Source: an uncultured Candidatus Saccharibacteria bacterium (lineage in GTDB: Bacteria; Patescibacteriota; Minisyncoccia; Phycocordibacterales; DAORIS01). From it: 48,904 nt of DNA. The notes beneath the pieces are model-generated. The model was given only the letters and a program-made list of their open reading frames with translations. It searched no databases and was not told where the DNA came from. The stretch's first letter is position 1. Every line of letters starts with the position of its first letter. Below, piece by piece: positions 479 to 47,248 of the stretch. The position numbers and the translations under genes were made by a program. The stretch lies in contig CAYTZA010000001.1 in NCBI GenBank assembly GCA_964442365.1, forward strand, positions 1 through 48,904. The letters run 5' to 3'.

Positions 479-507
479 TTGACATTGTACACAGTACATG
501 ATATAGT
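479..507 (+). promoter_or_regulatory. Near-consensus sigma70-type promoter (TTGACA-17 nt-TATAGT)
   Basis: TTGACA at 479-484, a 17-nt spacer, TATAGT at 502-507. The -35 overlaps the 3' arm of a 10-bp hairpin AAATCCACCC/caaaa/GGGTGGATTT (456-480). Confidence 0.6.
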
Positions 508-569
508 CTTGGTTGGTTCTCTTTTTGTTTTTCACACCTTTTTTCCCGCTTAGCGGGAAGGAGAAGAGT

Positions 570-740
570 ATGCCTGAGCAGATTCGGCCGCATGGGGTTT
601 CCGTTGAAGAGGTGCGTGAGGGTGCCGTGTTGCGTGCAAGGCACAAGATTCGCACCGGCGCTTATGACCATCCTGACGCACTCGAGGGCGTGCTGAAAGG
701 GCTCGCGCGGGATCTCGGTGTCGAGATTGTCGGTGACTGA
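570..740 (+). CDS. Small hypothetical protein (56 aa); C-terminal half weakly resembles FlgM-type anti-sigma factors
   Basis: ATG at 570 is preceded by AAGGAG (558-563) with a 6-nt spacer. The region is G+C-rich (hand count 38/60 G+C for 601-660). The string RHKIRTGAYDHPDALEGVL resembles the conserved I..G.Y.vD segment of FlgM. The longer 513..740 ORF-track call is rejected in favour of the SD-led ATG. Confidence 0.5.
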   Translation: MPEQIRPHGVSVEEVREGAVLRARHKIRTGAYDHPDALEGVLKGLARDLGVEIVGD

Positions 741-789
741 ACGGGGCGGTAAGGGAGAGAGAAACGCAATAGGAGAAGGAAAGGGAGTT

Positions 790-825
790 GGGGTCGCTAG
801 ACAACTGTTCTGGCGGCCCCTTTTT
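790..825 (+). terminator. Intrinsic terminator (GGGGTCGC...GCGGCCCC + TTTTT)
   Basis: 8-bp G+C-rich stem with one mismatch (790-797 / 813-820), followed by TTTTT at 821-825, 50 nt after the stop at 738-740. Confidence 0.6.
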
Positions 826-877
826 AATACCTAAATTTATACACAAAATTACCCTCAAGTAGAGTCTTTTGAGGTAC

Positions 878-907
878 TTGACAGATAGGGTGTAAAGGTG
901 ATATAAT
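878..907 (+). promoter_or_regulatory. Consensus sigma70-type promoter (TTGACA-18 nt-TATAAT)
   Basis: TTGACA at 878-883 and TATAAT at 902-907. Confidence 0.6.
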
Positions 908-976
908 ATATAGTGAATGTGCATAGAGCTGGTATGTTCCAGATCTAGAGCATATGTTCTTTCGAAAGGAGATTTG

Positions 977-1486
977 ATGGCACGTTCTCTTCTTATCGTC
1001 GTATGCGTTCTTGTGGTCTGGATGACCACTGCATCACAGGCGATAGCAGAGACGCCAAGGACGGCGCTGATCGAAGCCTTGATTCACGTTGAATCAAAAG
1101 GCAATGACCGTGCTCATGGAGACAAACATCTCCCTGACCATGCGTATGGTTGTCTCCAGATCAGGCAACCCTGTGTCGACGATGTGAATAGTCGATACGG
1201 CACGAATTATCGAGCGCAAGACTGCTTCGGTAATCGTGAGCTCTCGTTGTGGATCTTCCATAGGTATATGGATATCTATGCGACAGAGTCTCGAATAGGT
1301 CGTAAGGTGACCTATCAGGACATGTCCAGGATCTGGAACGGGGGACCGTCTGGATGCTTCGACGATGGGTCTATCGACAAAAACGGTCGAAAGCCCAAAA
1401 GTGCAAAGGCTCGCCGGAAAGTTTCTGAGACTCAGAAACGGGCGAAGATTGAGTATTGGCAGAAGAAAGTAAAACCTCTTCTCTGA
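977..1486 (+). CDS. Secreted lytic transglycosylase / lysozyme-like (SLT-type) protein
   Basis: AAGGAG at 966-971, 5-nt spacer, ATG at 977. The N-terminus MARSLLIVVCVLVVWMTTASQAIA looks like a Sec signal peptide. The catalytic-type motif is LIHVESKGN...AYGCLQI (E-S ... G-L/C-x-Q). The ORF-track start at 917 is rejected. Confidence 0.7.
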   Translation: MARSLLIVVCVLVVWMTTASQAIAETPRTALIEALIHVESKGNDRAHGDKHLPDHAYGCLQIRQPCVDDVNSRYGTNYRAQDCFGNRELSLWIFHRYMDIYATESRIGRKVTYQDMSRIWNGGPSGCFDDGSIDKNGRKPKSAKARRKVSETQKRAKIEYWQKKVKPLL

Positions 1487-1509
1487 CACTCGTTTGTTCT
1501 TGGTACGTA
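1485..1509. repeat. Right copy of the imperfect direct repeat (GACACTCGTTTGTTCTTGGTACGTA)
   Basis: See 325-350. This copy overlaps the stop codon of the 977..1486 CDS and the 5' arm of the first GGAU hairpin. Confidence 0.5.
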
Positions 1510-1584
1510 GGATTACGTACTGTGCAGGTGGATACCTGCTGTCAATATTGGAGTATAAAACCGCTTGGAGGATTCCAGGCGGTT
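1503..1584 (+). other. Three tandem hairpins, each presenting GGAU in the loop
   Basis: GTACGTA-GGAT-TACGTAC (1503-1520); GCAGGT-GGAT-ACCTGC (1524-1539); AACCGCTTGG-AGGATT-CCAGGCGGTT (1559-1584, one G:U pair). None is followed directly by a U-tract. Confidence 0.6.
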
Positions 1585-1647
1585 AAGTGTATATGGATAT
1601 TATTTTTTCTTGTAATTTAGATATTTTTGAGGTAATCTTTGCATATT

Positions 1648-1720
1648 GCGCTTGTAGCTCAGTTGGTAGAGCACATCACTGATACTGATGGGGTCCCAGG
1701 TTCGAATCCTGGCAGGCGCA
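1648..1720 (+). tRNA. tRNA-Ile (anticodon GAU)
   Basis: Cloverleaf folded by hand: acceptor GCGCTTG/CAGGCGC, D arm GCTC-AGTTGGTA-GAGC, anticodon arm CATCA-CTGATAC-TGATG, T arm CCAGG-TTCGAAT-CCTGG, discriminator A. CCA is not encoded. Confidence 0.93.
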
Positions 1721-1865
1721 CAAAAACAACAAGTGAGTCTTCGAGCGAGTATGTTTTTGTAGCGTGGGGTATTTTTATACTACCGCACAAAAGTAAGTTT
1801 CCACTGGCTAAAAAGTCTAAAATACGTTACTATATCTCCTTAAATTATATATTCACGTTTATTTT

Positions 1866-3290
1866 ATGATACCCGAAAAAAAGACAAAGATCGTTGCAAC
1901 TATTGGTCCAGCTACAGAGAAAGAACCTGTTTTTACTAAACTTGTAGAAGCGGGTTTAAATGTTATGCGACTTAACTTCTCCCATGGAGATTTTGCTGAA
2001 CATCAAGCTCGTGTCGATGTATGTCGTAAGGTATCAAAAAAGTTTGGTGTTTCTGTTGCTATTCTTCAAGATCTATCTGGTCCAAAGATTCGTATTGGTG
2101 AGTTTGGTACACCAAACGGTCGTATTACACTTATTCCTGGAAAAGCATTTACGATTACAACTGACAAGATTGTGGGTGATGAAAATCGCGTATCAGTGAA
2201 CTATCCTACTTTGCCAGAAGAGCTTAAGGTTGGAAATATGGTACTTCTCGATGACGGAAAAAAACGTCTTGAAGTTACAGCTATTAAAGGCAATGATATC
2301 GTTTGTAAAGTTATTATAGGTGGTGATACAAAAGGTCGTCGAGGAGTTAATCTTCCTGGCGCATATCTCAAGATTAGTTCTATTACTGAAAAAGATCGTA
2401 AAGACTTAGAATTTGGTATTAAAAACAAAGCTGATTTTATTGCTCTTTCTTTTGTACGACGTCCTGAAGATATTTTGGAACTTCGTGGTTTACTCACTAA
2501 AGCAAAATCAGAAGCAAAGATTATTGCTAAAATTGAGACTGAAGAAGCTATTGAAAATCTCGATGCTATTATCGATCTAACTGACGGTGTTATGGTTGCT
2601 CGTGGAGATCTTGCTATTGAAATACCTGCAGAAAAAGTACCCCTTATACAGAAACGTATTATTGCTCGTTGTAATGAACTCGGTAAACCAGTGATTACTG
2701 CTACACAGATGCTCGAGTCTATGATTAAGAGTCCTGTTCCTACACGTGCTGAAGTATCTGATATTGCTAACGCTATTATCGATGGTACTGATGCGGTCAT
2801 GCTATCAGAAGAAACTACACTTGGTGAATACCCTATAGAGGCAGTAAAAGTTATGACTAGAGTGTCTTTGGAAGTAGAAAAGACATACGATCTTCAGAGA
2901 AGTATTGAAGATATTACTCATGAAAGTCCTCGTCCTGTCGATGCTGTTTCTGGTGCTGTTGTACATGTTGCTGAAGAAATTGGTGCCACATGTATTGTCG
3001 CTCTTACACACTCTGGTACGACAGCTCGTTTGGTATCACGTTTTAAACCTTCGCAGTTGATTATCGGAGCTACACCGTTTGAAAAGACTTATAATCAGTT
3101 GGCACTTACAGGCAACACTATGCCTCTTATGGTAAAAAAGACTACGACACTTATGGCTGCATTTGCTGAAGTTAAAAAGACACTTCTTAAAAAGAAAATT
3201 GTAGAAAAGGGAGATAAAGTGGTGATTATTGCTGGTTTGCCATTTAGTAAACAGGTCAATACCAATATGTTGGTAGTAGAGACTATTTAG
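1866..3290 (+). CDS. pyk: Pyruvate kinase
   Basis: 474-aa ORF with KTKIVATIGPA, MRLNFSHG, MVARGDLAIEIP and DAVMLSEETTLG. Confidence 0.93.
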   Translation: MIPEKKTKIVATIGPATEKEPVFTKLVEAGLNVMRLNFSHGDFAEHQARVDVCRKVSKKFGVSVAILQDLSGPKIRIGEFGTPNGRITLIPGKAFTITTDKIVGDENRVSVNYPTLPEELKVGNMVLLDDGKKRLEVTAIKGNDIVCKVIIGGDTKGRRGVNLPGAYLKISSITEKDRKDLEFGIKNKADFIALSFVRRPEDILELRGLLTKAKSEAKIIAKIETEEAIENLDAIIDLTDGVMVARGDLAIEIPAEKVPLIQKRIIARCNELGKPVITATQMLESMIKSPVPTRAEVSDIANAIIDGTDAVMLSEETTLGEYPIEAVKVMTRVSLEVEKTYDLQRSIEDITHESPRPVDAVSGAVVHVAEEIGATCIVALTHSGTTARLVSRFKPSQLIIGATPFEKTYNQLALTGNTMPLMVKKTTTLMAAFAEVKKTLLKKKIVEKGDKVVIIAGLPFSKQVNTNMLVVETI

Positions 3291-3310
3291 TCTTTATTTA
3301 AATACCCTTT

Positions 3311-4102
3311 ATGGGTACTTTAGGGGCAGTCTGGTATACTATTTTCTATATGAATACATTTGCAAAATCGTATGTCTTAACAGACACAGACCTGCTTATG
3401 GACGTTGATAATAAACGTCAGGCTGGTTACGTTATCAAGGTTCGTGATATGGAAGAATCAGATAAGCCTCGAGAGAAGCTTATTGCCGGTGGTCCAGGAG
3501 CACTTTCTGTAGCAGAACTTATGGCAATTGTACTTGGTACGGGGACTAAAAAAGAGGAAGTATTAGAAATGGCTAATCGAGTAGTTAAAGAATATGGTGA
3601 AAGAATCTTGTCTCGACAAGTAAGCGCAGAACAGTTGGCAACAGATCTTGATATTCCTATAGGAAAAGCTTCTCAAATTGTTGCGGTTGGAGAGCTTGGA
3701 AGACGTTTTTTTGATAAAACAGCTGAAGGTCTTGCAGTGATTCGTACACCGGAGGATGCACACCACTATTTGCGTGATATGCATAATCTTCCTAAGGAAC
3801 ATGTGCGTGGTATTTATCTAAATACTCACTATCAAGTAATACACGATGAAGTGATTTCTATTGGTACTGTAAACTCTAATCTCGTTCATCCACGTGAAGT
3901 ATTTCGTCCTGCTTTACAATACGGCGCAGCGGCAGTGATTATTGCCCACAATCATCCGTCTGGAGTTATGAAGGCATCAGATTCTGATATTGCTACTACT
4001 AAACAAATCGTAGAAGCAGGAAAAATTCTTGGTATTCATGTAATTGATCATATTATTGTAAGTGGTGATAAATTCATTAGTGTGGATGTCAGTTATGAAT
4101 GA
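3311..4102 (+). CDS. radC: RadC-family JAB-domain protein
   Basis: KPREKL...LSVAELMAIVLGTG (HhH region) and the JAMM-like AHNHPSG motif. An alternative start is the ATG at 3350. Confidence 0.85.
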   Translation: MGTLGAVWYTIFYMNTFAKSYVLTDTDLLMDVDNKRQAGYVIKVRDMEESDKPREKLIAGGPGALSVAELMAIVLGTGTKKEEVLEMANRVVKEYGERILSRQVSAEQLATDLDIPIGKASQIVAVGELGRRFFDKTAEGLAVIRTPEDAHHYLRDMHNLPKEHVRGIYLNTHYQVIHDEVISIGTVNSNLVHPREVFRPALQYGAAAVIIAHNHPSGVMKASDSDIATTKQIVEAGKILGIHVIDHIIVSGDKFISVDVSYE

Positions 4103-5414
4103 TTTTCGTGGAAAAAGAATAACAGTTATGGGACTCGGCCTTTTAGGTCGAGGTATTGGTGATGTTCGTTTTTTAGCTTCGCAAGGAGCAATCCTTACTG
4201 TGACTGATTTGAAAACAAAAGAGGCTCTTGCTCCAGCTTTAGCAGAACTTAAAAAACTCAAAGATATTACTTATGTTCTCGGAGAGCATAGACTTGAAGA
4301 TTTTCGTGACAAAGACATGATTATAAAATCAGCTGGTGTTCCACTTGATTCTCCGTATATAGAAGAAGCGCGTAAAGAAGGAATACCAATTGAAATGAGT
4401 ACCTCTCTATTTGCGCGCATCACACCTGCTACGATTATTGGGATTACTGGTACGCGTGGAAAATCTACGGTTACGCATCTATTGTATGAGATTTTAAAAG
4501 AGGCATATAAAGGTAAAAAACAAAAAGTATATCTTGGTGGTAATGTAAAAGGAGTATCCACACTCGAATTATTACCAGTTGCCAAAAAGGGTGACATGGT
4601 GGTGCTTGAATTGGACTCTTGGCAATTACAAGGTTTTGGAGAGGCTAAAATAAGTCCTCATGTATCTATTTTCACAACATTTATGTCTGATCATTTGAAT
4701 TATTATAAAAATGATACGAAACAATATTTTACTGATAAATCATATATATATCGTTTTCAGAAAAAAGGAGATATTTTAGTGGCAGGGAAACAGATGGCTA
4801 GTTTAATACGTAATCGTCCTGATAAAATAATTGTTGATGAAAATACACTTCCTGTTGATTGGAAACTTAAAATGCCCGGTATTCATAATCGTTACAATAC
4901 AGCACTGGCGGTAACTGCTGCTCTGGCTTTGGGTGTAAAAAAAGAAGTTATAAAAAGTGTGGCAGAAAAGTTTAAAGGAGTCCCAGGACGTCTTGAATTG
5001 GTTAGGACAGTAAGTGGGGTATCTTTCTACAATGACACAACCGCTACCACTCCTGAGGCTACTATTGCGGCTTTAGAAGCGCTTGGTATTGATCATGCCA
5101 AACACATCGTACTTATCATGGGTGGGGCAGATAAAGCTCTTGATATGTCAGAATTGCCGGCTGTGATTAAAAAATATGTCAAAGCGGTAGTGTTACTACC
5201 TGGTACAGGAACAGATCGGATTATTTCTGAAAAAGTATTTCAGCGGTTAGATCCTGTATGTGTTGAGTCTCTTCCAGATGCTCTTCATTCTGCGAGAATA
5301 TATGCAGCTCCAGACGATATCGTGCTATTTAGTCCAGCTTTTGCATCTTTTGGACTTTTCAAAAATGAATTTGATCGTGGTGAACAATTTAATACTTTAT
5401 GCAAATCGATTTAA
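4095..5414 (+). CDS. murD: UDP-N-acetylmuramoyl-L-alanine--D-glutamate ligase
   Basis: Mur ligase features: ITVMGLGLLGRG (Rossmann), GITGTRGKSTV (P-loop), NRYN, GVPGRLE. The start is set at ATG 4095 (MNDFRGK) and overlaps the radC stop. Confidence 0.88.
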   Translation: MNDFRGKRITVMGLGLLGRGIGDVRFLASQGAILTVTDLKTKEALAPALAELKKLKDITYVLGEHRLEDFRDKDMIIKSAGVPLDSPYIEEARKEGIPIEMSTSLFARITPATIIGITGTRGKSTVTHLLYEILKEAYKGKKQKVYLGGNVKGVSTLELLPVAKKGDMVVLELDSWQLQGFGEAKISPHVSIFTTFMSDHLNYYKNDTKQYFTDKSYIYRFQKKGDILVAGKQMASLIRNRPDKIIVDENTLPVDWKLKMPGIHNRYNTALAVTAALALGVKKEVIKSVAEKFKGVPGRLELVRTVSGVSFYNDTTATTPEATIAALEALGIDHAKHIVLIMGGADKALDMSELPAVIKKYVKAVVLLPGTGTDRIISEKVFQRLDPVCVESLPDALHSARIYAAPDDIVLFSPAFASFGLFKNEFDRGEQFNTLCKSI

Positions 5415-6709: not shown

Positions 6710-6726
6710 TATGAGACAATCGCAGT

Positions 6727-6957
6727 ATGAAGAAGAAAATAATCCTTATACTTGCCTGCATCATAGCCCTTATCCCTTTTACAGGATTTCCTGATTCTTG
6801 GAAAACATTGATTATATCTTTATTGGCTATATCAATAATTGTTATCGTCTATCGTGAAGATATTCGTAACTTTTTTGCAGTACCACAATATCCTCCAGGA
6901 AGAATCGTCGAAGGGGATAGTTTTGTAGAAAGTACTGGTCCAGTACAAGGAGCATGA
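6727..6957 (+). CDS. Small membrane protein (two predicted hydrophobic helices), function unknown
   Basis: 76-aa ORF with hydrophobic stretches ILILACIIALIPF and LIISLLAISIIVIVY. It has a 4-nt overlap with the next gene. Confidence 0.55.
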   Translation: MKKKIILILACIIALIPFTGFPDSWKTLIISLLAISIIVIVYREDIRNFFAVPQYPPGRIVEGDSFVESTGPVQGA

Positions 6958-8138: not shown

Positions 8139-8142
8139 TTAC

Positions 8143-26152: not shown

Positions 26153-26173
26153 AAACCACCTCGAGTGAAGTGG
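26151..26173 (-). terminator. Intrinsic terminator for the minus-strand ACP-like ORF, lying between convergent genes
   Basis: Hairpin CCACCTC/gagt/GAAGTGG (26156-26173, one mismatch). On the minus strand it is followed by TTTTT (complement of 26151-26155). Confidence 0.5.
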
Positions 26174-26192
26174 TGTGTGAATATGGTTGTGT

Positions 26193-26597
26193 CTACTTAG
26201 TGAGCTTGCTTTTTACAAAACGACACAAGTTCTCAACGGTAAACAAGTCTTGAAGTTCTTCGACCTTGCGATGTGTTTCGAAAGCATCTAGACCCTTAAT
26301 GTGCCGAAATTTCTTCCTCATTTTTTTCATACCAAGGTCAGTGACTAGACCGTTTTTAACGCAGTCCGGCTCATCAATTATGCTCTCAGCAGTCATTTCG
26401 CCTGGGTTGATTTTGATCCTCCACATTCTTTCGGCGCGGAAGGTGATGTCGAGTCGGTCGATAGATTCTGCTCCAAGATCAGCATAGATTCTGGATGTGT
26501 AAGTGACTTCCTCTTCATCAACACCGAGAGCTTCGGCGAGAAGTTTCTGAACCTTTTGGAAGATTTCTTGATCAGACGGACAGTTTTTTACGAGCAT
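26193..26597 (-). CDS. Acyl/peptidyl carrier protein-like domain protein with a ~65-aa C-terminal extension
   Basis: ATG at 26597, preceded by AAGGAGG (26608-26602) and a 4-nt spacer. ...LLAEALGVDEEEVTYTSRIYADLGAESIDRLDITF matches the ACP helix II region (DLGxDSLD), with Ser in GAES. The 26193..26759 N-terminal extension reads through the SD (..QQGG..) and is rejected. Confidence 0.6.
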   Translation of the reverse strand: MLVKNCPSDQEIFQKVQKLLAEALGVDEEEVTYTSRIYADLGAESIDRLDITFRAERMWRIKINPGEMTAESIIDEPDCVKNGLVTDLGMKKMRKKFRHIKGLDAFETHRKVEELQDLFTVENLCRFVKSKLTK

Positions 26598-26687
26598 GAG
26601 TCCTCCTTGTTGGTGGTGAAAGAGACAAGAAACAACTGTAGGATATGTAACCATACTTTTAAGAAATATGCTATGATTCTTTCGTTC

Positions 26688-39243: not shown

Positions 39244-39264
39244 ATAATGTTATAATACATATCT

Positions 39265-39545: not shown

Positions 39546-39575
39546 ATGTTTGGTTATTTTTAATATAATTATTTA

Positions 39576-40247
39576 ATGCGTGGTAAACCCATATCTCAAA
39601 ATGAGATAAAAAGAATAAAGTATCTGAGAGAACGTGGTTGGAGTTTACCTGAAATTATCAAAGTCACAAAAAGAGGTTCTTCAACAGTTTTTAAGTATGC
39701 AAAAGATGTTTCTGTTCTGGCGAAGTACCGAAATACTTTAAAGGAAAAGTAAGGTGGCAGTAAACGAAAAGCGATAGCTGACTGGGACCGTGCTACTCAG
39801 TGTGCAAAAAATATCTTACCGTCGGTCTTGTCCCGTGAACAGAGATTGCTGTTGTTACTGGGTATTTATTGGGGTGAAGGTAATAAAAGAGAATTAAATC
39901 TTATCAATTCTGATCCGGCTCTCATAAAAACCTTTCTTTCTTGTCTTTATGATATGGGTATGAAAAAAGAAGAATTAAGGATAACTTTAAGATTATACGA
40001 CGGGATTGATAAGGAAAAATCTAGAAGATTTTGGGCAAAACTTTTATCAATACGTATTAAAGATATACGTAATATTAATACGATACAAGGTAACAAAATA
40101 GGGAAGTTAAAGTATGGAATGTGCAGGGTGAGGGTTGCAAAAAGTGCGCCTTACTTTAAACTGATTATGAGTTTATTAAGTGAAATAAAGGAGCGATTCA
40201 ATGCTGCCGTAGTTCAACGGATAGAACAAGGGACTCCTAAGCCCTAG
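39576..40247 (+). pseudogene. HTH plus LAGLIDADG-like endonuclease-type ORF, interrupted by an in-frame TAA
   Basis: ATG at 39576 opens a frame encoding an HTH (RGWSLPEIIKVTKRGSSTVFKY). TAA at 39750-39752 interrupts it. The same frame continues through LLLLGIYWGEGNK...LINSDPALIKTF...GMCRVRV to TAG at 40245-40247. The last 45 nt are the 5' two-thirds of tRNA-Arg. The endonuclease assignment comes from motif resemblance only. Confidence 0.5.
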
Positions 40248-40274
40248 ATGCAGGTTCAATTCCTGCCGGTGGCA
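40203..40274 (+). tRNA. tRNA-Arg (anticodon CCU)
   Basis: Acceptor GCTGCCG/CGGTGGC (two G:U pairs), D arm GTTC-AACGGATA-GAAC, anticodon arm AGGGA-CTCCTAA-GCCCT (an A:G mismatch at 31:39), T arm GCAGG-TTCAATT-CCTGC, discriminator A. Confidence 0.85.
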
Positions 40275-40411
40275 CTATTATAAAATCAAAACCACCTTTT
40301 CTGGAGGCGGAATCTCGGAGCCCAAAGACAACAGTATATTTTAAAAAGAAAAATAGTAGTGTAATAAAAACGATATCCTCTCCGTACTGAAGTACTGGAT
40401 TTTTTGGTAAT

Positions 40412-40431
40412 AAAAAACCCGCATGTGCGGG
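40412..40431 (-). terminator. Intrinsic terminator of the 40457..40693 ORF
   Basis: Minus strand reads CCCGC-acat-GCGGG followed by TTTTTT (complement of 40412-40417), 26 nt after the stop codon. Confidence 0.7.
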
Positions 40432-40456
40432 ATGTTGTTTGGGTGGATCGGTATTT

Positions 40457-40693
40457 TTACCAAGGCACAGCCTCCTCTTCAACTCGATGCGCCAGCATGC
40501 GCCCTTGAAGAATCTGTTCGGCGTATATCCTCCTTTGTTCCGGATCCATGCTTGCCAGTTGCACGAGATCAAGATTGAGATTTGGGTAAAATTCAGGACC
40601 GTGTCCCGAAAGATGCTGATCCCGATCTCTCCAAAGAGTATGCATGTCCAAGCCGAAACACGTTTTCAACAAGTTTAAGACTTTGATGAGCAT
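40457..40693 (-). CDS. Hypothetical 78-aa protein, no recognisable family
   Basis: ATG at 40693, preceded by AAGGAG (40707-40702) and an 8-nt spacer. G+C-rich (hand count 31/60 for 40481-40540). It has its own terminator and a candidate extended -10 promoter. Confidence 0.55.
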   Translation of the reverse strand: MLIKVLNLLKTCFGLDMHTLWRDRDQHLSGHGPEFYPNLNLDLVQLASMDPEQRRIYAEQILQGRMLAHRVEEEAVPW

Positions 40694-40727
40694 CTGCGAT
40701 TCTCCTTTATGTTCGAGTTCTTTTAAC

Positions 40728-40755
40728 AGAATATCACTAATAAAAAAATATTCAA
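40728..40755 (-). promoter_or_regulatory. Candidate promoter (TTGAAT-16 nt-TGaTATTCT) for the 40457..40693 ORF
   Basis: Read on the minus strand: TTGAAT (40755-40750) and TATTCT (40733-40728) with an upstream TG. Confidence 0.4.
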
Positions 40756-40774
40756 CATATGATATGATTTACAG

Positions 40775-41047
40775 ATGGACGATAAAGAAAAGCTCGATAA
40801 GATTTTGGAACTTGCAGAAGATACCAATAAATTAGTACATAAGATGCGTCGAGTTCAGGTGTTTTCTGGATTGTGGACGATTTTTTATTGGGTAATCGTG
40901 ATCGGTATTGGTATCGGAGCTTTTTACTATATTCAGATATATATAGATTCTATTAAAGAGGCTGTAGGTATTGTAAGTGAAAAAAATGCCTCTTCTTCGC
41001 CTTTACTAAACTTTAGTTTTAGCGCCTTAAAAGACCTTGTAAAATAG
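40775..41047 (+). CDS. Small membrane protein (90 aa), unknown function
   Basis: AT-rich ORF in host style, with one clear TM segment (LWTIFYWVIVIGIGIGAFYYI). No SD. Confidence 0.5.
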   Translation: MDDKEKLDKILELAEDTNKLVHKMRRVQVFSGLWTIFYWVIVIGIGIGAFYYIQIYIDSIKEAVGIVSEKNASSSPLLNFSFSALKDLVK

Positions 41048-41106
41048 TAAAATTCCAGTAGAATGGCTTAGTCAGTGATTGTGTGACTGCTGATAAATGT
41101 CGGTAT

Positions 41107-41179
41107 GCCGAGGTAGCTCAGTTGGTAGAGCATATCCCTGAAGAGGATGGGGTCGCCGGTTCGAATCCGGCCCTCGGCA
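41107..41179 (+). tRNA. tRNA-Phe (anticodon GAA)
   Basis: Acceptor GCCGAGG/CCTCGGC, D arm GCTC-AGTTGGTA-GAGC, anticodon arm TATCC-CTGAAGA-GGATG, T arm GCCGG-TTCGAAT-CCGGC, discriminator A. Confidence 0.93.
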
Positions 41180-41282
41180 CAAAAAAACGAACATATAGAC
41201 TATTTGTGTGAATTGTGGTAAAAAAATGACAGAATCTGATTATTTTGTTTAGGTGTGTTTTTTTAAAAAAGGAGTGTGATCA

Positions 41283-41996
41283 ATGTCAAAAGAAAGAAAG
41301 AGGCGCGGGGTTTCTGTTGGTGCTGGTATGGTGCCTACAAGCACAGAAATTGGGCGTATTGTTCGAGAACGTCGAATTGAGCTCGGTCTGAGTCAGACAG
41401 AATTGAATTCCAAGATTCCGCGTTCTGGTATTAAAAATCAATTAGTTAGTAAATTAGAGGTTGGTAGTTTGAAATCTTTGAGACCAGATCAACTCAAGAT
41501 ACTGACAAAAATTCTGAATTTAGATGCTAGTTCTTTGAGTAAGTGTATAAAGATTAGAACACCACGACAAAGAACAAGGCTTGGGAAGTTGATTAGATCT
41601 CTCTGTGCTAAGCAAGGTCTGTCTACTGAACAGTTTGCATTGCAATTGGGTCTTACAACTAAACAAGTAAGAGCTATTGAGTTTCGTAATAACTTGAGTA
41701 CTTGTTACCGCAGTTTATTGCCAATTTTTGCTCGCATTCTTTCTGTTGATGAGGCAGTCTTTGCACCATTTTTGGGATTAAGAAAAAAAGAAAGTGGTCT
41801 GAGCAAATTTGGTAAATCCGTTCGCTCTCATAGAATACGTATTGGCATGAGTGCTAGAAGACTCGCAAGAGAACTTCATGTTACTCATCAAGCTGTAAGT
41901 AGTATGGAGCGCAGAGGCACTCCATATCCAAAAAGATTTACCATAGAAAAGCTTGCTGGCGTGTTGCAGACGAGCGTTGAAGAATTGACTTCTTAG
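41283..41996 (+). CDS. Protein with three tandem XRE-type helix-turn-helix modules
   Basis: AAGGAG at 41269-41274, 8-nt spacer, ATG at 41283. The repeats are IGRIVRERRIELGLSQTELNSKI, LGKLIRSLCAKQGLSTEQFALQLGLTTKQVRAIE and FGKSVRSHRIRIGMSARRLARELHVTHQAVSSME. Confidence 0.65.
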   Translation: MSKERKRRGVSVGAGMVPTSTEIGRIVRERRIELGLSQTELNSKIPRSGIKNQLVSKLEVGSLKSLRPDQLKILTKILNLDASSLSKCIKIRTPRQRTRLGKLIRSLCAKQGLSTEQFALQLGLTTKQVRAIEFRNNLSTCYRSLLPIFARILSVDEAVFAPFLGLRKKESGLSKFGKSVRSHRIRIGMSARRLARELHVTHQAVSSMERRGTPYPKRFTIEKLAGVLQTSVEELTS

Positions 41997-42003
41997 TATG
42001 CAT

Positions 42004-42033
42004 GTCCCGATCTGAAAAGGTTGGGACTTTTTT
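42004..42033 (+). terminator. Intrinsic terminator after the triple-HTH ORF
   Basis: GTCCCGA/TTGGGAC stem (42004-42010 / 42021-42027, one G:U pair), followed by TTTTTT. Confidence 0.65.
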
Positions 42034-42037
42034 ATTT

Positions 42038-42511
42038 TTAAGAATTAGTTCGAACACGAAGACGAGTTTGACGGTGTTTATCTATTTTAGGAAGTCTGAT
42101 TGTAAGAAGGCCGTATTTTTCATTGGCCTCAGATTCTTCAACATCGACTTCTTCTGGCAACATAATAGTTCTTGAAAATGATCCCCAATAGAGTTCTTGG
42201 TGAAAATATTCTCCTTCTTCTGTTTCGCGAGAACTTTGACGAGTGCCTTTAATAGTTACCATATCTCTGGTGATTGAAATATCAAGGTCTTCTGGTTTAA
42301 CACCAGCAACCATTGTTTTTATAACAATTTCATCACTATTTTGATATACATCTACTGTAAGTTCTCCTTCGTCTTCGCTTGATTGAGAAGCGTCTTCTGT
42401 GTCTTCTATTTCAGTACCTGGATAGTGGTGGTGTAATACTTCATCACTGTCATGATTAGCTTTTACTGTTCCTGTTAATCTTTCAAAAAATGATTTTTTA
42501 TCTTTGTTCAT
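42038..42511 (-). CDS. Hsp20/alpha-crystallin family small heat-shock protein
   Basis: LTVDVYQNSDEIVIKTMVAGVKPEDLDISI....V.I.G.R..........Y...E...G.F.R...LP..VD........GLLTI.LPK is the classic alpha-crystallin domain pattern. Confidence 0.88.
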   Translation of the reverse strand: MNKDKKSFFERLTGTVKANHDSDEVLHHHYPGTEIEDTEDASQSSEDEGELTVDVYQNSDEIVIKTMVAGVKPEDLDISITRDMVTIKGTRQSSRETEEGEYFHQELYWGSFSRTIMLPEEVDVEESEANEKYGLLTIRLPKIDKHRQTRLRVRTNS

Positions 42512-43190
42512 AGGTAAAATGTTTCTTTATATGATTGAGTACAAGCACTAAGATAATACAGATAACCCAGAGACCAATGAATATATTGAGTACAGAAGTA
42601 ATGCTAGGGTTCATTATAAAGAAATTATAGATACTGTGCAAACCGATAGCAAAGATAAGTCCGAGTCCAATAGCTTCCCATTTGTTTTTTTTATTATAAA
42701 AATATTTTGCCATATACATACCAATAATACTTGAACAGGTAACATGTATAAGAGTTGAACCAAGGAAACGTGCGTGTGCAATAGCGAGAGCGTGACTAAT
42801 ATCACCCTCAATAAATGGTCTTGCTAGAAATAAACAATTTTCAAGAGCTGCAAAACCGAGAGCTGCTGTTGCCATGTATATAACTTCGTCCATGGGCTCA
42901 TCGGCGTCTTTACTACGAAGTGCGCCTAAATAGGCAAATAAGAATTTGAATAATTCTTCAAATCCAGCAAATAAAATTATAACAAATACCGCTGATATTC
43001 CTCTGTTTTGGAAAAAGGCCTGTAAAGGTAGTACTGCTACAACTGCCAACATACCAGAAATAAAAGCCATTGTTAGGCGTAGGCGTGGTTCTGGATGTGG
43101 ACGATCTTCTTTGAGGATAAACCACAACCAAATAAAAGCAGGTAAAAATCCTGCAGTAATAATAAAACTAAAAGTTAAAAGGCCTTCCAT
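42498..43190 (-). CDS. prsW: PrsW-family intramembrane protease
   Basis: Polytopic membrane ORF with the EE..K motif (GFEELFKF), AALGFAALEN, and the later H...N (GLHSIYNF). Confidence 0.75.
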   Translation of the reverse strand: MEGLLTFSFIITAGFLPAFIWLWFILKEDRPHPEPRLRLTMAFISGMLAVVAVLPLQAFFQNRGISAVFVIILFAGFEELFKFLFAYLGALRSKDADEPMDEVIYMATAALGFAALENCLFLARPFIEGDISHALAIAHARFLGSTLIHVTCSSIIGMYMAKYFYNKKNKWEAIGLGLIFAIGLHSIYNFFIMNPSITSVLNIFIGLWVICIILVLVLNHIKKHFTYEQR

Positions 43191-45373
43191 GGATGTATGA
43201 TAAGTAGCTCTGACTTTTCTTTATGTGCGGGCATCATACTCCACAGTTCTTCGGTAATAAAGGGCATAAAAGGGTGAAGGATGATAAGCACTTGTTCTAG
43301 TATAGCAAGGAGTGTTTGACGACGAGAGAGAGCATTGTCCACATTGTTGGTATCAGTAAGTATTATTTTACTTTCTTCTAGTATAACGTCAGCAAATCGG
43401 TGCCATGCATAGTGATATATTTTTTCTGAAGCAAGGTGAAAACGGTAATTTTCAAGATCATTAGTGATATCCTCAGAAATTTCCTGCAATTCAGTTATTA
43501 GGGCTTTGTCAGTATCTGAAGTTATTTTTGTTTTATCAGGCGATATGCCTTCGGTATTTGAGAGTACAAAACGAGCTATATTCCAAAGTTTATTACCAAA
43601 GTTTTTGTAGCCCTTTATTTTATTTTCGTCTATTTTACTATCAGTTCCTGGAGCAGTACCAACAATAAGTGCCATACGCCCAGCATCAGCGCCAAATTTA
43701 TTTGCTACATCAATAGGATCGATACCGTTTCCTAGGGATTTAGACATTTTTTGTCCTTTGCCGTCACGTACTGTTCCGTGAAGGTATATTGTTTTAAAGG
43801 GTATAGTTCCAATAGCATATTTTGTCATGATAATCATACGAGCAATCCAGAAGAATAAGATTTCATAACCAGTTTCAATAATATTTGTTGGGTGATATGT
43901 GGCAAGATCTTTTGTTTGTTCTGGCCAGCCAAGAGTTGAAAACGTCCACAGTCCAGAAGAGAACCACGTATCAAGGGTGTCTTCATCTTGTATCCAATCT
44001 GAACCTGTTGGTGCGTCTATGCCTGTATAGATTTCTTCATGACCACTAGAATATTTTTTATACCATACTGGTATACGGTGTCCGTACCAAATCTGACGTG
44101 AAATACACCAATCTCGTAAATTATCTATCCAATTAAAATATGTTTTAGAAAAATAATCAGGAATTATTGATATTGATTCTGGAGATATAGCTTCACGAGC
44201 AAGATCTTTAAAAGTTTTATTTTCTCTGGAAGGTATTGGTTTATTGACGTTTATAAACCATTGTAGTTTTGGAAGTGGCTCAACAATACCTCCTGTACGC
44301 TCTGCTGTTGCGATGCGTTGTGTCGTAGGTTCTTCTTTTTCTAAGAGCTTTTCTGTTTTGAGCCATTCTACTATAGCAGTGCGTGCCTCTGTTGTTTTTT
44401 TGTTTAGTATATTTTCACCGCCTACTGTCATACGAGCATATTCGTTGATAACTTGTACGACTGGCAATTTATGACGTTCAGCTATTTCCCAGTCAGTTGT
44501 ACTATGTGCTGGAGTAACACCTAAAGCTCCAGTTCCGAAATCTTTTTCTACACTTTGATCAGCGATAATTTTAATATGAATAGGCACTCCACAAAAAACA
44601 ATATCGTATTCTTTTCCTATGTAATCTGTATAGCGAGTATCGTCTGGATGTACTGCTACAGCAGTGTCACCAACTTTTGTTTCTGGACGTGTTGTGGAAA
44701 TGCTAATAGGGAAGTCTTTTGAATATTTAAATGTATATAAAGTAGATTGTCTTTCTTCGTAAACAATTTCATCGTCAGAAATAGTAGTTTGTCCTTTTGG
44801 ATCCCAGTTAACAATACGATTCCCTCTGTAGATCAAACCTTCGTCATACATACTTTTAAATATAGTACGTACAGCTTTCGTACGAGTAGTATCGAGTGTA
44901 AATGCTTCTCTTGACCAATCACATGAAGCACCGATACGTTTTATTTGAGAAACAATCGTATCGTGACTTTCTTGGGCAAATTGTTCTACACGTTTGAGAA
45001 ATACTTCACGACCAAGATCGTGTCGACTTTTGTCTTCTTTTTTTAAAATATCCTTTTCAACTTTTGATTGTGTTGCGATAGCGGCGTGATCTGTCCCAGG
45101 AATCCAAAGTGTACGATATCCTCGCATGCGATGAAAACGCACCATGATATCTTCTATTGTAACCATGAGACCGTGTCCCATGTGTAGTACACCAGTAACG
45201 TTTGGTGGTGGCATAACTATAGAAAATACCGGAGCATCTTTTTTTGCTATTCCGGCCTCTATACACTTGTCAGGGTTAAAATACCCTGACTTTTCCCAGA
45301 GTTCGTATATGCGTGTTTCGGTCTCTTGCGGGTCGTATGGTTTGAGTAATTTATCGTTCATAATCGTATCCAA
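43175..45373 (-). CDS. valS: Valine--tRNA ligase (short form, without a long C-terminal coiled coil)
   Basis: PPPNVTGVLHMGHG (HIGH), TTRPETKVGDTAVAVHP, WCISRQIWYGHRIP and KMSKSLGN. Confidence 0.93.
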   Translation of the reverse strand: MDTIMNDKLLKPYDPQETETRIYELWEKSGYFNPDKCIEAGIAKKDAPVFSIVMPPPNVTGVLHMGHGLMVTIEDIMVRFHRMRGYRTLWIPGTDHAAIATQSKVEKDILKKEDKSRHDLGREVFLKRVEQFAQESHDTIVSQIKRIGASCDWSREAFTLDTTRTKAVRTIFKSMYDEGLIYRGNRIVNWDPKGQTTISDDEIVYEERQSTLYTFKYSKDFPISISTTRPETKVGDTAVAVHPDDTRYTDYIGKEYDIVFCGVPIHIKIIADQSVEKDFGTGALGVTPAHSTTDWEIAERHKLPVVQVINEYARMTVGGENILNKKTTEARTAIVEWLKTEKLLEKEEPTTQRIATAERTGGIVEPLPKLQWFINVNKPIPSRENKTFKDLAREAISPESISIIPDYFSKTYFNWIDNLRDWCISRQIWYGHRIPVWYKKYSSGHEEIYTGIDAPTGSDWIQDEDTLDTWFSSGLWTFSTLGWPEQTKDLATYHPTNIIETGYEILFFWIARMIIMTKYAIGTIPFKTIYLHGTVRDGKGQKMSKSLGNGIDPIDVANKFGADAGRMALIVGTAPGTDSKIDENKIKGYKNFGNKLWNIARFVLSNTEGISPDKTKITSDTDKALITELQEISEDITNDLENYRFHLASEKIYHYAWHRFADVILEESKIILTDTNNVDNALSRRQTLLAILEQVLIILHPFMPFITEELWSMMPAHKEKSELLIIHPWKAF

Positions 45374-46522
45374 TCATACCATAGAGGCATTGCCAGAGGC
45401 TCTAATATCGCTATTGTCGATAGTTTTATCGTTTTTGAGCCATGTAATATACCCAGCCATAGCAATCATGGTGGCATTGTCCGTAGAAAGGTTCTTTGTT
45501 GGTATATGGAGGTGTAAATACATTTTCTCTGAGAGAATAGTAAACGCTTGTGTGATGTAATTATTTGCAATAACCCCGCCTCCTATAATAAGTGACTGTG
45601 CATAGTACTCCTCGAGAGCTTTTTTGGTTTTGGTAAGTAATACTTCTGTTACAGCATCTTCAAATTCTCTAGCAAGATCAGCTTTAAGTTCGTCTGTTAT
45701 TGCAGGTTTGTCTTTGAGAGTATAGAGCACTGCTGTTTTTATTCCTGAAAAAGAAAAATCATAATCCTGACTTTTAAGCATGGGTCTCGGAAGTGTATAA
45801 ACACGAGGGTAATTTTTTAAGCGTGCAATTTCAGCTAATTTTGATATCTCAGGTCCTCCTGGATATGGTAGTCCTATTAAGCGTGCCACTTTATCAAAAG
45901 CCTCTCCAACAGCGTCATCTCTAGTTGCTCCGATCATTTTATATTGTCCCCAACTCTGTACGAGTACTAGTTCAGTGTGTCCGCCACTTATAAGCAGTGC
46001 TAAAGCTGGAAATACTACAGGAGTTTTTGTTTCAGAAAGAAGTGGGGAAATAACATGACCTTCCATATGGTTAGTTGCTATGACTGGTATGTCCCAGACT
46101 TTTCCAAGTGCTTTGGCAAAATTGATCCCTACCCAAAGTGCGGGTTCTAATCCTGGTCCATAAGTAACTGCTATAGCGTCAATATTTGGTTTTTTAATAT
46201 TTGAGATATATTCGATAAAATCTTTATGTAAATCATATTCTCTTTCTAGAAGAGAAGATACTTCTTGGGTATTAATTTCGGTATAGCCTCCGTGTTCGGT
46301 CTTTGTTTTTTGTAGTAATTCTTTAAGAAGAGGTACGAGACGTTTGGCGTGTTCTCTTTTTGCTATAGCAGGGAATACTCCTCCAAAAGCTTTGTGTATA
46401 TCGATCTGTGAAAAAAGTACTGAATCTACAAGGTTAAAAGAGGGATTTTCTATGTCCCCGCCAGCTTCTACTATTGATAAAGCTGTTTCGTCACAACTTG
46501 TTTCTATACCGAGTATTCGCAT
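45374..46522 (-). CDS. tsaD: tRNA N6-adenosine threonylcarbamoyltransferase TsaD (Kae1/Gcp)
   Basis: ILGIETSCDETA, NHMEGH, SGGHT and GLPYPGGP. Confidence 0.92.
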   Translation of the reverse strand: MRILGIETSCDETALSIVEAGGDIENPSFNLVDSVLFSQIDIHKAFGGVFPAIAKREHAKRLVPLLKELLQKTKTEHGGYTEINTQEVSSLLEREYDLHKDFIEYISNIKKPNIDAIAVTYGPGLEPALWVGINFAKALGKVWDIPVIATNHMEGHVISPLLSETKTPVVFPALALLISGGHTELVLVQSWGQYKMIGATRDDAVGEAFDKVARLIGLPYPGGPEISKLAEIARLKNYPRVYTLPRPMLKSQDYDFSFSGIKTAVLYTLKDKPAITDELKADLAREFEDAVTEVLLTKTKKALEEYYAQSLIIGGGVIANNYITQAFTILSEKMYLHLHIPTKNLSTDNATMIAMAGYITWLKNDKTIDNSDIRASGNASMV

Positions 46523-46572
46523 TTTAATAATCTACATGAAAACACTTCTTTTAGCTAACAGTATTTTTTTAT

Positions 46573-46608
46573 AAAAAAGCCCCTAGGTACCTGGTGGTAT
46601 CTAGGGGC
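46573..46608 (-). terminator. Intrinsic terminator of the 46617..47132 ORF
   Basis: Perfect 8-bp stem GCCCCTAG/CTAGGGGC (46579-46586 / 46601-46608). The minus strand is followed by TTTTTT (complement of 46573-46578). Confidence 0.7.
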
Positions 46609-46616
46609 GGTGTTCT

Positions 46617-47132
46617 TTAACAGTGTGCAACAGAGTTGTGTTCGCGCTCTTGCTTACGCTTATCACGCCTTTTTTTTATAAGACTTTCTCGGTTTTGAAC
46701 CCAGTGATGATACCGAGCACTCTTCTTTTTGTTATCAGGTTCTAATCCATAGGCATTTCTACATCTACGGATAACAATTCCTGTCGTGGGATCTTTTTCT
46801 ACCCACTCTTTTACTCCGCGTCGCATCATAGCTAGAATCTCATGAGAAACTTGCTTTATGCGTTCCGGGAAAGAAAAGATTTTCGGATTGATTCTGATAA
46901 GGTAACAATCGGAAAGCTCAACATAACGGGTAGAGAATAGTTTGTTACCTGAATCAATTCCTAGCTCAACACAGACTCCGGTCCTCTCGCCAATAATTGT
47001 CGTTAAGCAAGGGACCTGTTTACTTGTACCAACTCTTTCTCTGTTGATATCGCGCATTATTTTTAGAATTACGTGACACGAGAGATCTGTTGTGCTTACT
47101 GTGGACGGAAAAGCGCGTGGCAAAGTATCCAT
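46617..47132 (-). CDS. Hypothetical 171-aa protein with a basic C-terminal tail, no recognisable family
   Basis: ATG at 47132, preceded by AAGGAG (47144-47139) and a 6-nt spacer. Composition is G+C-richer than its neighbours (26/60 for 46621-46680). It has its own terminator. Confidence 0.6.
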   Translation of the reverse strand: MDTLPRAFPSTVSTTDLSCHVILKIMRDINRERVGTSKQVPCLTTIIGERTGVCVELGIDSGNKLFSTRYVELSDCYLIRINPKIFSFPERIKQVSHEILAMMRRGVKEWVEKDPTTGIVIRRCRNAYGLEPDNKKKSARYHHWVQNRESLIKKRRDKRKQEREHNSVAHC

Positions 47133-47183
47133 AGCACACTCCTTTGTGAAAAGAACAATTTTCCAAAAAACACGTTGTTTTCT

Positions 47184-47248
47184 GGTCTTAGAGTAGTTAC
47201 TTGATTACCGCTCTAAGACCAAAACAAAACCCCCGCTTGTGGCGGAGG
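47184..47248 (-). promoter_or_regulatory. Structured leader: terminator-like hairpin plus U-tract, immediately followed by a perfect 10-bp hairpin
   Basis: The minus strand reads CCTCCGCC-acaa-GCGGGGG TTTTGTTTT (47248-47221), then GGTCTTAGAG-17 nt-CTCTAAGACC (47220-47184). This lies ~40 nt upstream of the SD at 47144. Confidence 0.5.

Follow-up and report, generated by a model that had tools for sequence, protein, structure and literature searches.

Shine–Dalgarno-like boxes before a putative class of leadered genes in a bacterial clade whose 16S rRNA lacks the anti-Shine–Dalgarno core

What is a Shine–Dalgarno (SD) sequence doing in a genome whose 16S rRNA lacks the sequence that should pair with it? 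The helix between the SD and the anti-SD of 16S rRNA is the textbook mechanism of bacterial start-site selection, and, to our knowledge, lineages without an anti-SD have been assumed to have simply abandoned SD sequences. The question is raised by 48,904 nt of DNA from an uncultured Candidatus Saccharibacteria bacterium (contig CAYTZA010000001.1, positions 1−48,904, forward strand; hereafter the window), in which six short open reading frames (ORFs), ORF1 to ORF6, are each led by AAGGAG. The reading that we favour, with evenly balanced confidence, is that the six ORFs represent a native class of leadered, mostly monocistronic genes whose SD-like box is under selection. Judged from sequence comparison, the box is best read as a selected feature of this gene class and not as mere baggage of recent transfer. 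No fewer than two of the six ORFs have retained the box across relatives, and even in a clade without an anti-SD it probably still serves some purpose.

Six AAGGAG-led ORFs and the resident 16S rRNA

All six ORFs and their AAGGAG boxes were found where the original prediction had placed them, with 5−8 nt between box and ATG and ORF lengths of 56 to 237 codons. Of the 36 AAGGAG sites on the two strands of the window, six are followed, 4−9 nt later, by the ATG of an ORF with 50 codons or more. Each of the other 19 hexamers composed of three A and three G gave zero to three such ORFs (Fisher p = 0.001−0.003), and those scoring two or three (AGGAGA, GGAGAA) were shifted, overlapping registers of the same sites. 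No seventh AAGGAG-led ORF was found in the both-strand scan of the window. The 16S rRNA gene and the six cassettes are as follows.

1..222, plus strand: 3' end of the 16S rRNA gene (Rfam SSU, model positions 1299−1533, 178.8 bits)
479..826, plus strand: cassette 1, with promoter (479−507), SD (558−563), ORF1 (570−740; 56 aa, GC 0.61) and terminator (790−820) followed by a T-run
541..568, plus strand: leader hairpin of cassette 1, TTTTTTCCCGC-TTA-GCGGGAAGGAG, which pairs with the SD
878..1486, plus strand: cassette 2, with promoter (878−907), leader of ~65 nt, SD (966−971) and ORF2 (977−1486; 169 aa)
955..971, plus strand: leader motif of cassette 2, GTTCTTT-CG-AAAGGAG, whose U/C-rich stretch pairs with the box
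26155..26608, minus strand: cassette 3, with SD AAGGAGG (26608−26602), ORF3 (26597−26193; 134 aa) and terminator (26174−26155), between eno and iPGM
40418..40707, minus strand: cassette 4, with SD (40707−40702), ORF4 (40693−40457; 78 aa) and terminator (40431−40418)
41269..42027, plus strand: cassette 5, with SD (41269−41274) within AAGGAGTGTGATCA, ORF5 (41283−41996; 237 aa) and terminator (42004−42027)
46579..47262, minus strand: cassette 6, with leader (47262−47133), SD (47144−47139), ORF6 (47132−46617; 171 aa) and terminator hairpin (46608−46579)

The resident 16S rRNA has a normal helix 45 followed by the tail GGAAUAUUUCAAAU, in which CCUCC is absent, as had been predicted; at positions 208−222 the gene reads GGAATATTTCAAAT, without the CCTCC anti-SD core. 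Close relatives, sought in a Pyk-anchored scan with one genome per species, were metagenome-assembled genomes (MAGs) of Patescibacteria/Paceibacteria only, with identities of at most 63% (Taylor-, Vogel-, Nomura-, Adler-, Wolfe-, Campbellbacteria and similar groups). The genome is accordingly placed as a hitherto unsampled lineage within Paceibacteria (Parcubacteria, Candidate Phyla Radiation). CCUCC was missing from 47/47 clade 16S 3' ends (23 Pyk-anchored and 24 lysozyme-anchored loci), whose tails read GGAWTWTTTCAA or close variants. Across these 47 relatives no conserved CCUCC was found 3' of the 16S gene, and neither CUCCUU nor CCUCC nor CCUUUC turned up as a conserved site within 14 full-length 16S genes from the clade. 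A relocated or alternative anti-SD was considered and is unsupported, pairing of GAAA with the tail UUUC giving only four to five weak pairs.

Duplex energies of the six 5' untranslated regions with the resident tail were −1.9 to −5.4 kcal/mol, compared with a mean of −3.3 for other genes; with a canonical tail they were −8.7 to −18.3 kcal/mol. Thus, of the two components of canonical SD:anti-SD initiation, an upstream AAGGAG is present in 6/6 and the complementary CCUCC(U) is missing. Since the resident tail cannot pair canonically with the box, any reader of the box would be another component.

The anti-SD loss and the scarcity of SD sequences are already known. The anti-SD motif was found in only 48% of Parcubacteria, overlapping with the uL1-less group (Tsurumaki et al., RNA 2022, PMC9297842), and Campbellbacteria and Wolfebacteria were classed as 'SD-scarce, lacking CCUCC', with 2−5% SD genes (PLoS One 2024, PMC10783764). 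As far as the accessible text of both reports goes, the systems described there show the same lineage-level phenomenon, with a tail lacking CCUCC and SD genes nearly absent; that text reports the loss and does not discuss the residual SD-bearing genes. In contrast to what it describes, the residual genes here appear as a discrete class that is leadered, mostly self-terminated, rich in G+C at third codon positions (GC3) and located beside stable-RNA genes.

Whole-ORF GC was 0.61, 0.50, 0.44, 0.48, 0.40 and 0.42 for ORF1 to ORF6, compared with 0.369 for the window and 0.35 for its intergenic DNA. The corresponding GC3 values were 0.61, 0.52, 0.47, 0.51, 0.29 and 0.36, against 0.236 ± 0.037 in 29 housekeeping genes. 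The predicted G+C richness therefore held for ORF1 to ORF4 (GC3 z = 5.7−8.8) and in moderate form for ORF6 (z = 3.9); ORF5 is host-like (z = 1.8). Both G3 and C3 were elevated in the atypical ORFs, which argues against simple codon optimisation. Translational selection for C-ending codons was rejected as the cause of the high GC3, since G3 is raised as well.

The transcription signals agreed with the original prediction. Two near-consensus promoters were confirmed, TTGACA-17-TATAGT at 479−507 (11/12 matches) and TTGACA-18-TATAAT at 878−907 (12/12, with TG), and a hairpin plus T-run terminator follows five of the six ORFs (ORF1, 3, 4, 5 and 6), ORF2 having no clear one. Five of six also lie 100−350 nt from the 16S or a tRNA gene, and four are both downstream of and co-oriented with it (16S before ORF1 and ORF2, tRNA-Phe before ORF5, tRNA-Val before ORF6). 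No −10-like hexamer was found within 20 nt of the ATG in any of the six; their promoters or leaders lie 30−130 nt upstream. The possibility that the cassettes are RNA genes was dismissed, with no Rfam match in any of them (gathering threshold, E ≤ 5) and a fold z-score of −1.6 against shuffles for the ORF1 transcript.

The neighbouring genes had been described as SD-less. They do lack an SD, and the description can be refined: they are leaderless where first in an operon and coupled elsewhere. First-in-operon genes of the window carry a TAnnnT box, often TGnTAnAAT, ending 6−9 nt 5' of the ATG (eno, the AI-2E transporter gene, grx, DivIC, GT11 and the TPR protein are examples). Among 300 clade genes whose 16S was verified as CCUCC-less, the distance of −10-like hexamers to the ATG had a narrow maximum at exactly 6 nt, with 23 genes, and no such peak was seen in Firmicutes-type control loci. 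Operon-internal genes abut or overlap their predecessor, an arrangement that indicates coupled translation. With the housekeeping genes leaderless or coupled, a background without SD sequences is explained.

Conservation of the ORF2 and ORF6 families

ORF2 encodes a signal peptide followed by an i-type lysozyme/destabilase-like domain, and its family is well populated. The specific assignment as a lytic transglycosylase was not upheld; the family profile matches an i-type lysozyme/destabilase (PDB 8bbu, E = 2.6e-19) and also the i-type lysozymes PDB 2dqa, 3ab6 and 4pj2. The single sequence gave Pfam matches to Destabilase and SLT below the cut-off. E39-S40, G58, Q61 and D68-D69 are invariant in the family, with the catalytic Glu in a (V)ES motif. 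ORF2 is thus a putative secreted i-type lysozyme homologue.

The gene lies in the spacer between the 16S and tRNA-Ile genes, for which two further features are needed.

455..481, plus strand: hairpin with core CCACCC-CAAAA-GGGTGG, 3' of the 16S and before the cassette 1 promoter; its position is kept in the relatives' loci L025, L082 and L083
1648..1721, plus strand: tRNA-Ile(GAT), the downstream limit of the spacer that houses cassettes 1 and 2

The terminator scan listed only the minus-strand reading of this palindromic hairpin. The order 16S, ORF2 homologue, tRNA-Ile, pyk was found in the same three loci, and in another 21 loci, from metagenomes, an ORF2 homologue directly follows a 16S gene that lacks CCUCC. 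An SD-like 5-mer at −17 to −4 was present in 18/21 ORF2-homologue loci with a 16S verified as anti-SD-less, against 55/300 control genes (p = 3e-10), and nearly all members of the family carry AAGGAG, AGAAAGG or GGAGG 5−10 nt before the start. The atypical composition is conserved too. In all genomes checked, the GC3 of the ORF2 homologue exceeded that of its neighbours (0.52/0.21, 0.59/0.21−0.28, 0.63/0.40−0.43 and 0.48/0.31), and the family keeps a GC3 of ~0.45−0.65 even where host GC is 0.35−0.45. Across seven non-redundant genomes the identity of the ORF2 homologues (46−62%) never exceeded that of Pyk (57−64%), a comparison used only to establish that ORF2 is never the closer of the two. 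These sequence comparisons mark ORF2 as a long-established resident rather than a recent arrival.

In six ORF2-homologue leaders (L094, L095, L101, L115, L116 and L118), GTTCCTC was observed ~30 nt before the start, followed by a hairpin presenting tAGAAAGg in its loop, for example CCAAC-TAGAAAG-GTTGG; the stems differ by locus. This is a possible ribosome-binding-site-presenting or regulatory hairpin.

ORF6 has a basic C-terminus and lies downstream of the co-oriented tRNA-Val gene (47482−47409) and upstream of tsaD. Its relatives share 64%, 61% and 27−32% identity, and the order tRNA-Val, ORF6 homologue, tsaD, aminoacyl-tRNA synthetase (aaRS) gene is kept in L164 and L170. GC3 was again higher in the ORF6 homologue than in tsaD (0.36/0.25, 0.36/0.22 and 0.55/0.33). 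The predicted fold of ORF6 (AlphaFold, pLDDT 74.7) had no PDB match at E ≤ 0.001. Five loci of the family have a comparable leader.

47133..47262, minus strand: ORF6 leader of the window
895..1032 of L164: ORF6-family leader
85..226 of L167: ORF6-family leader
2868..3003 of L170: ORF6-family leader
2862..3003 of L168: ORF6-family leader

The leader is ~135 nt long and contains three predicted hairpins, with compensatory changes in 9/27 predicted pairs. P1 is terminator-like (47253−47225, followed by a U-run), P2 shows compensatory changes in 6/8 pairs, and P3 is formed by CCAGAAAACA/TGTTTTTTGG. In 5/5 loci the box is kept and the leader ends in GTTCTTT-N-ACAAAGGAG(G)-N6-8-ATG, the spacer version in the window being GTTCTTT-TCAC-AAAGGAG. 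The stretch from the leader hairpin to ORF6 showed no promoter-like site. The leader, which had no match in Rfam, is a candidate for a new cis-regulatory RNA or attenuator.

The pattern extends beyond these two families. A clade test covered 45 independent loci with a CCUCC-less 16S (448 kb, 412 genes), the window being excluded. SD-like hexamers were found 32 times at a spacing of 4−11 nt, against 20 times at the 19 larger spacings of 12−30 nt (p = 2e-6), and the 15 genes with an SD-like box had a GC3 0.14 above the locus median (p = 2e-5). Several of these genes are small ORFs directly after the 16S (L004, L024, L029, L064 and L113). The tie between SD-like box and GC3 across the 45 loci makes it a property of the clade and not of the window only.

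A probably selected box and its alternatives

Judged by the literature that was searched, the new points are that the residual SD genes form a coherent class, that the box is conserved in the two families that could be traced and that their atypical composition is conserved with it. Of the explanations offered in the original prediction, a gene class that is handled differently in translation fits best, given the leadered set and the clade-wide box spacing and GC3; the mechanism itself we infer. Messenger RNAs that are unable to be leaderless would need de novo internal ribosome recruitment, namely those with a promoter far upstream, with a regulatory leader, or derived by read-through or processing from an rRNA or tRNA transcript, as may hold for some of the cassettes. 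An ORF placed 3' of a stable-RNA gene would have no upstream ORF to which it could be coupled, and its mRNA, if read through or processed from the transcript of that gene, would not be leaderless. The purine box would be the element that recruits ribosomes, and it would often be masked in a small hairpin by an upstream U/C-rich stretch (TTTTTT, GTTCTTT or GTTCCTC), giving translational control. The pairing of the ORF1, ORF2 and ORF6 boxes with such a stretch suggests masked, regulated translation, in which the hairpins would act as regulators. The reader of the box might be a ribosomal or 30S platform protein, an accessory factor, a different RNA site, or ribosomes that form a minor population. 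In its fullest form, the proposal is that a component other than an anti-SD reads the SD while core genes are leaderless or coupled, so that SD recognition is uncoupled from anti-SD pairing in a gene class marked by GC3 excess; this we put forward tentatively, as possible but doubtful. Transfer would feed membership of the class (ORF3 and possibly the orphans) without being its unifying cause.

Several known systems resemble parts of this arrangement. The leaderless-dominated Actinobacteria, Deinococcus and many archaea share the two-mode layout, which here takes the form of a −10 element ~6−7 nt before the ATG and a leadered minority with an SD. Such organisms mostly keep a canonical anti-SD for the SD-led mode, and in this the present clade differs. 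FourU and ROSE RNA thermometers and other SD-masking leaders likewise have a U or U/C run that pairs with AGGA or AAGGAG, as in ORF1 (541−568) and in the GTTCTTT...AAAGGAG of ORF2 and ORF6; in contrast to them, the hairpins here are short and weak, none matches Rfam, and masking would matter only if a ribosome reads the box. In Bacteroidota, a few genes, rpsU/bS21 among them, keep a strong SD for autoregulation (accessible text of PMC10783764), the likeness being a small SD-bearing set that serves as a regulatory handle. The same text describes a Bacteroidota anti-SD that is sequestered with CCUCC kept, and freed on bS21-less ribosomes, whereas in the present clade the 16S gene lacks that sequence. 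None of the genes involved here encodes a ribosomal protein, and the housekeeping genes are leaderless, unlike the A-rich leadered ones that this text gives for Bacteroidota.

A number of observations weigh against a native class with a selected box. ORF1, ORF4 and ORF5 have no homologues and ORF3 looks foreign; the lasting GC3 excess is not accounted for by the model. The 16S evidence in the window consists of the last 222 nt of one gene, and the anti-SD-less 16S was verified in the hosts of ORF2 homologues only, not in those of ORF6 homologues. Congruence between ORF2 homologues and Pyk is underpowered at n = 7 (Pearson r = 0.59, Spearman ~0). Strict AAGGAG-led ORFs number 6 per 49 kb in the window against 14 per 832 kb in the relatives' loci (~7-fold), so the genome may hold extra, possibly acquired, members. 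Finally, the box could owe its conservation to protein binding, or to forming the 3' arm of a leader hairpin, and not to contact with the ribosome.

The most direct alternative is that each cassette was recently imported by horizontal transfer, bringing its promoter, SD and terminator along, from a GC-richer donor that uses SD sequences (a host bacterium or another member of the Candidate Phyla Radiation, CPR), and that the SD is a functionless, undecayed relic. The GC3 of ORF1 to ORF4 (0.47−0.61, against 0.24 in housekeeping genes), the lack of relatives for ORF1, ORF4 and ORF5, and the placement of the ORF3 family outside the CPR (Isosphaeraceae; a contig with OprB) are all as such imports would have it. 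So are the extension of the ORF5 and ORF6 SDs to AAGGAGTGTG(ATC), matching the whole canonical tail, the consensus −35/−10 promoters, which differ from the −10-only housekeeping promoters, the window's excess of AAGGAG-led ORFs and the 10-nt direct repeats around cassettes 1 and 2. Set against this, diverged relatives carry ORF2 and ORF6 in synteny and have kept their box, leader and GC3 excess, ORF2 is never more alike between genomes than Pyk, and SD-like boxes peak at the canonical spacing clade-wide. A neutral relic should have decayed, the anti-SD loss of the clade being ancient. The GC3 of ORF5 is host-like, and the best match of ORF3 is 47% identical, so that its transfer was either not recent or came from an unsampled donor. 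Atypical composition, one mark of horizontal gene transfer (HGT), was found for ORF1 to ORF4 and ORF6 and not for ORF5; absence or non-synteny in relatives, another, was found neither for ORF2 (L025, L082, L083 and the 21 loci) nor for ORF6 (L164 and L170). The original prediction had named conserved synteny with host-like codon usage as evidence against the pattern it described, and for ORF2 and ORF6 synteny is indeed kept, with codon usage that is not host-like. Recent single-gene acquisition is thus contradicted for ORF2 and ORF6 and plausible for ORF3, with its non-CPR relatives, and we regard it as unlikely for the set. If the cassettes are instead dispersed mobile or phage-derived elements (miniature elements or morons) that insert beside tRNA and rRNA genes, the adjacency of 5/6 to stable-RNA genes and the 10-nt repeats would follow; ORF5 has multiple helix–turn–helix (HTH) domains and matches phage-repressor PHROGs, and ORF2 gave distant Cellulophaga-phage lysozyme matches in a phage-database search of five proteins, ORF5 not included. 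Yet the cassettes share no common end sequences, inverted repeats or other repeats, no integrase or transposase was found nearby, and PHROGs matched only ORF5 (HTH) and ORF3 (acyl carrier protein), with none for ORF1, 2, 4 or 6. The repeats are marginal, with a chance of 6.6% per cassette (2/6 gives p = 0.054), and the positions of ORF2 and ORF6 are stable across the clade. This suggestion of the original prediction is unsupported, and we hold it to be scarcely probable. tRNA-adjacent HGT islets share the atypical composition, the orphan or patchy genes and the closeness to tRNA and rRNA; unlike them, the cassettes are single-gene units without an integrase or att-like repeats, and 2/6 would be ancient syntenic residents with conserved atypical composition.

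Two further explanations concern the box itself. It might be the site of an RNA-binding regulator or the purine arm of a leader hairpin, with initiation proceeding via unstructured A-rich sequence. Its pairing with U/C-rich stretches in ORF1 (541−568), ORF2 (GTTCTTT-CG-AAAGGAG) and the ORF6 family (GTTCTTT-N-ACAAAGGAG) is compatible with this, as are the tAGAAAGg loops after GTTCCTC in several ORF2-homologue leaders and the failure to find an rRNA partner; moreover, Escherichia coli ribosomes with a mutated anti-SD reportedly still choose correct starts. Nevertheless, unrelated genes converge on one hexamer at a spacing of 5−8 nt, which a ribosome-positioning element predicts and a generic hairpin need not. 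The ACA-N-GGA context of ORF3, ORF4 and ORF6 may resemble CsrA-type sites, and no CsrA-like gene was found in Pfam scans of the called window ORFs, which included no search aimed at CsrA. We consider this explanation improbable. The boxes are also perfect complements of a canonical tail (−8.7 to −18.3 kcal/mol), as would be expected if a second 16S gene, or a separate or processed 3' fragment with CCUCC, equipped a specialised minority of ribosomes. Only part of a single 16S gene falls within the window, and insertions are known from CPR rRNA genes, one clade 16S (L148) measuring 2429 nt by end-to-end motif-match extraction. Against such a hidden anti-SD stand the absence of CCUCC from 47/47 clade 16S 3' ends and the lack of a conserved CCUCC 3' of the 16S or of a conserved alternative site inside it. 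CPR genomes, besides, usually have a single rRNA operon. The probability of a hidden anti-SD is accordingly put very low.

Should the boxes of the proposed native class prove functional, the clade would be a natural system in which to find non-16S readers of the SD, and it may show how ultra-small symbionts assign leaderless and leadered initiation to their core genes and to their accessory or regulated ones. Interest for translation biology hinges on experimental proof of box function. In annotation, gene finders set to 'no RBS' (ribosome-binding site) would mis-start or miss this class, and composition-based HGT calls would misflag conserved residents such as the 16S-linked lysozyme.

Remaining cassettes and other features of the window

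ORF1 had been described as FlgM-like, which was not borne out; it gave no Pfam match at E ≤ 1 and no homologue besides itself in either of two protein libraries (5.8e9 and 1.8e9 entries). It is polymorphic, since the corresponding spacers of L025, L082 and L083 have no ORF1. An acidic, SD-led 52-aa ORF in the same slot of L113 was rejected as a homologue: its likeness to ORF1 (VS.EEV...IRT..Y) was by eye, BLASTP found none, and a two-sequence hidden Markov model recovered nothing else. It is a positional analogue only.

No 23S gene follows the 16S in the window (222−1648), and the 16S−pyk spacer varies from ~0.4 to 9.6 kb among L002−L064. Small SD-led ORFs were observed in these spacers, namely membrane peptides in L029 and L064, a 'MHRSSR' pair in L004 and L024, and the acidic 52-aa ORF of L113, and the spacer appears to be a hotspot for the SD-led gene class. 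The 10-nt direct repeats in the window are TATACACAAA (449−458/838−847), flanking cassette 1, and TTTTGAGGTA (867−876/1625−1634), flanking cassette 2; they could be target-site duplications or coincidence.

Two oddities were seen among the relatives' 16S genes. L138 (2567 bp) contains a pair of oppositely oriented 16S 3' ends within 2.6 kb, and the two tails differ. The L148 16S spans its 2429 nt between conserved end motifs, compared with 1473−1591 nt in the other 13, which implies an insertion of ~900 nt. This is consistent with the insertions reported for CPR rRNA genes in the accessible text of PMC9297842.

The carrier-protein-like nature of ORF3 was confirmed (Pfam PP-binding, E = 5.1e-6, above the cut-off; DLGAESID, with the phosphopantetheine-attachment serine, invariant in the family). 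It is an atypical acyl-carrier-protein-like protein with an extra C-terminal domain of ~70 aa. A longer ORF3 from 26759, which would make the SD internal, was rejected, since the extension is not conserved and 10 homologues begin at the same Met as 26597, confirming that start. The relatives, at most 47% identical, were found only outside the CPR; one is from an Isosphaeraceae planctomycete MAG (P0067), and another shares its contig with a gene for an OprB porin. Given this distribution, it is plausible that ORF3 was transferred from a donor beyond the CPR.

ORF4 is convergent with tRNA-Arg (40203−40275) and divergent from a leaderless 90-aa gene at 40775. No homologues of ORF4 or ORF5 were found in the two very large protein libraries. 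The triple-HTH prediction for ORF5 proved correct, with three HTH_3 domains in a gene whose GC3 of 0.29 is host-like. The gene begins 103 nt 3' of the co-oriented tRNA-Phe (41107−41180), and no promoter-like site was found between the two. Its SD context, AAGGAGTGTGATCA, complements almost the whole canonical 16S tail. The ORF5 (41266−41282) and ORF6 (47129−47146, minus strand) boxes were seen to share the extended form AAGGAGTGTG, of which AAGGAGTGTGATCA is the ORF5 version; AAGGAGTGTG complements nearly the whole canonical tail GAUCACCUCCUU except for one extra U, and the resident 16S has no such tail.

The assembly was compared with an independent Logan assembly, which matched 40221−41133, comprising the ORF4 cassette and its two flanks, with 100% identity, and 1696−3852 with 99.9%, arguing against a chimeric join at those places. 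An identical Logan contig thus contradicts a chimeric origin of ORF4; for ORF2 and ORF6, the synteny seen in other assemblies does the same.

The window contains one partial 16S gene, four tRNA genes, RNase P RNA and ~45 protein genes. The protein genes include pyk, radC, murD/murC-like, murB and murJ, and a glycosyltransferase/flippase/Wzy cluster is also present. Further named genes are secA, eno, iPGM, obg, gatB, lepA, tsaD, a class-I aaRS gene, HSP20 and a HigB/HTH pair. Amid the cell-wall genes lies a gene for a TrwB/VirD4/HerA-like coupling ATPase (8050−9795, plus strand), which may bear on DNA uptake or transfer.

In the region 39504−40275, a tRNA-like fragment, GGACGCTCTTGTAGTTCAATGGATAAGAACAGTCCCGTCC, is followed by ORFs at 39576−39752 and 39828−40247. 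The latter contains YWGEGNK, which is LAGLIDADG-like by eye only, had no match in Pfam and overlaps into tRNA-Arg(CCT). The region may be the remnant of a homing-endonuclease insertion at a tRNA gene. Just 5' of tRNA-Arg, an AAGGAG at 40188 precedes an ATG at 40201 whose ORF has only ~15 codons.

Between murB and secA, a Gp49/HigB-like toxin gene (20784−21137, minus strand) is accompanied by an HTH_3 antitoxin-like gene (20491−20760, minus strand), and the antitoxin-like gene appears leaderless, with GATAAT, 9 nt and then ATG.

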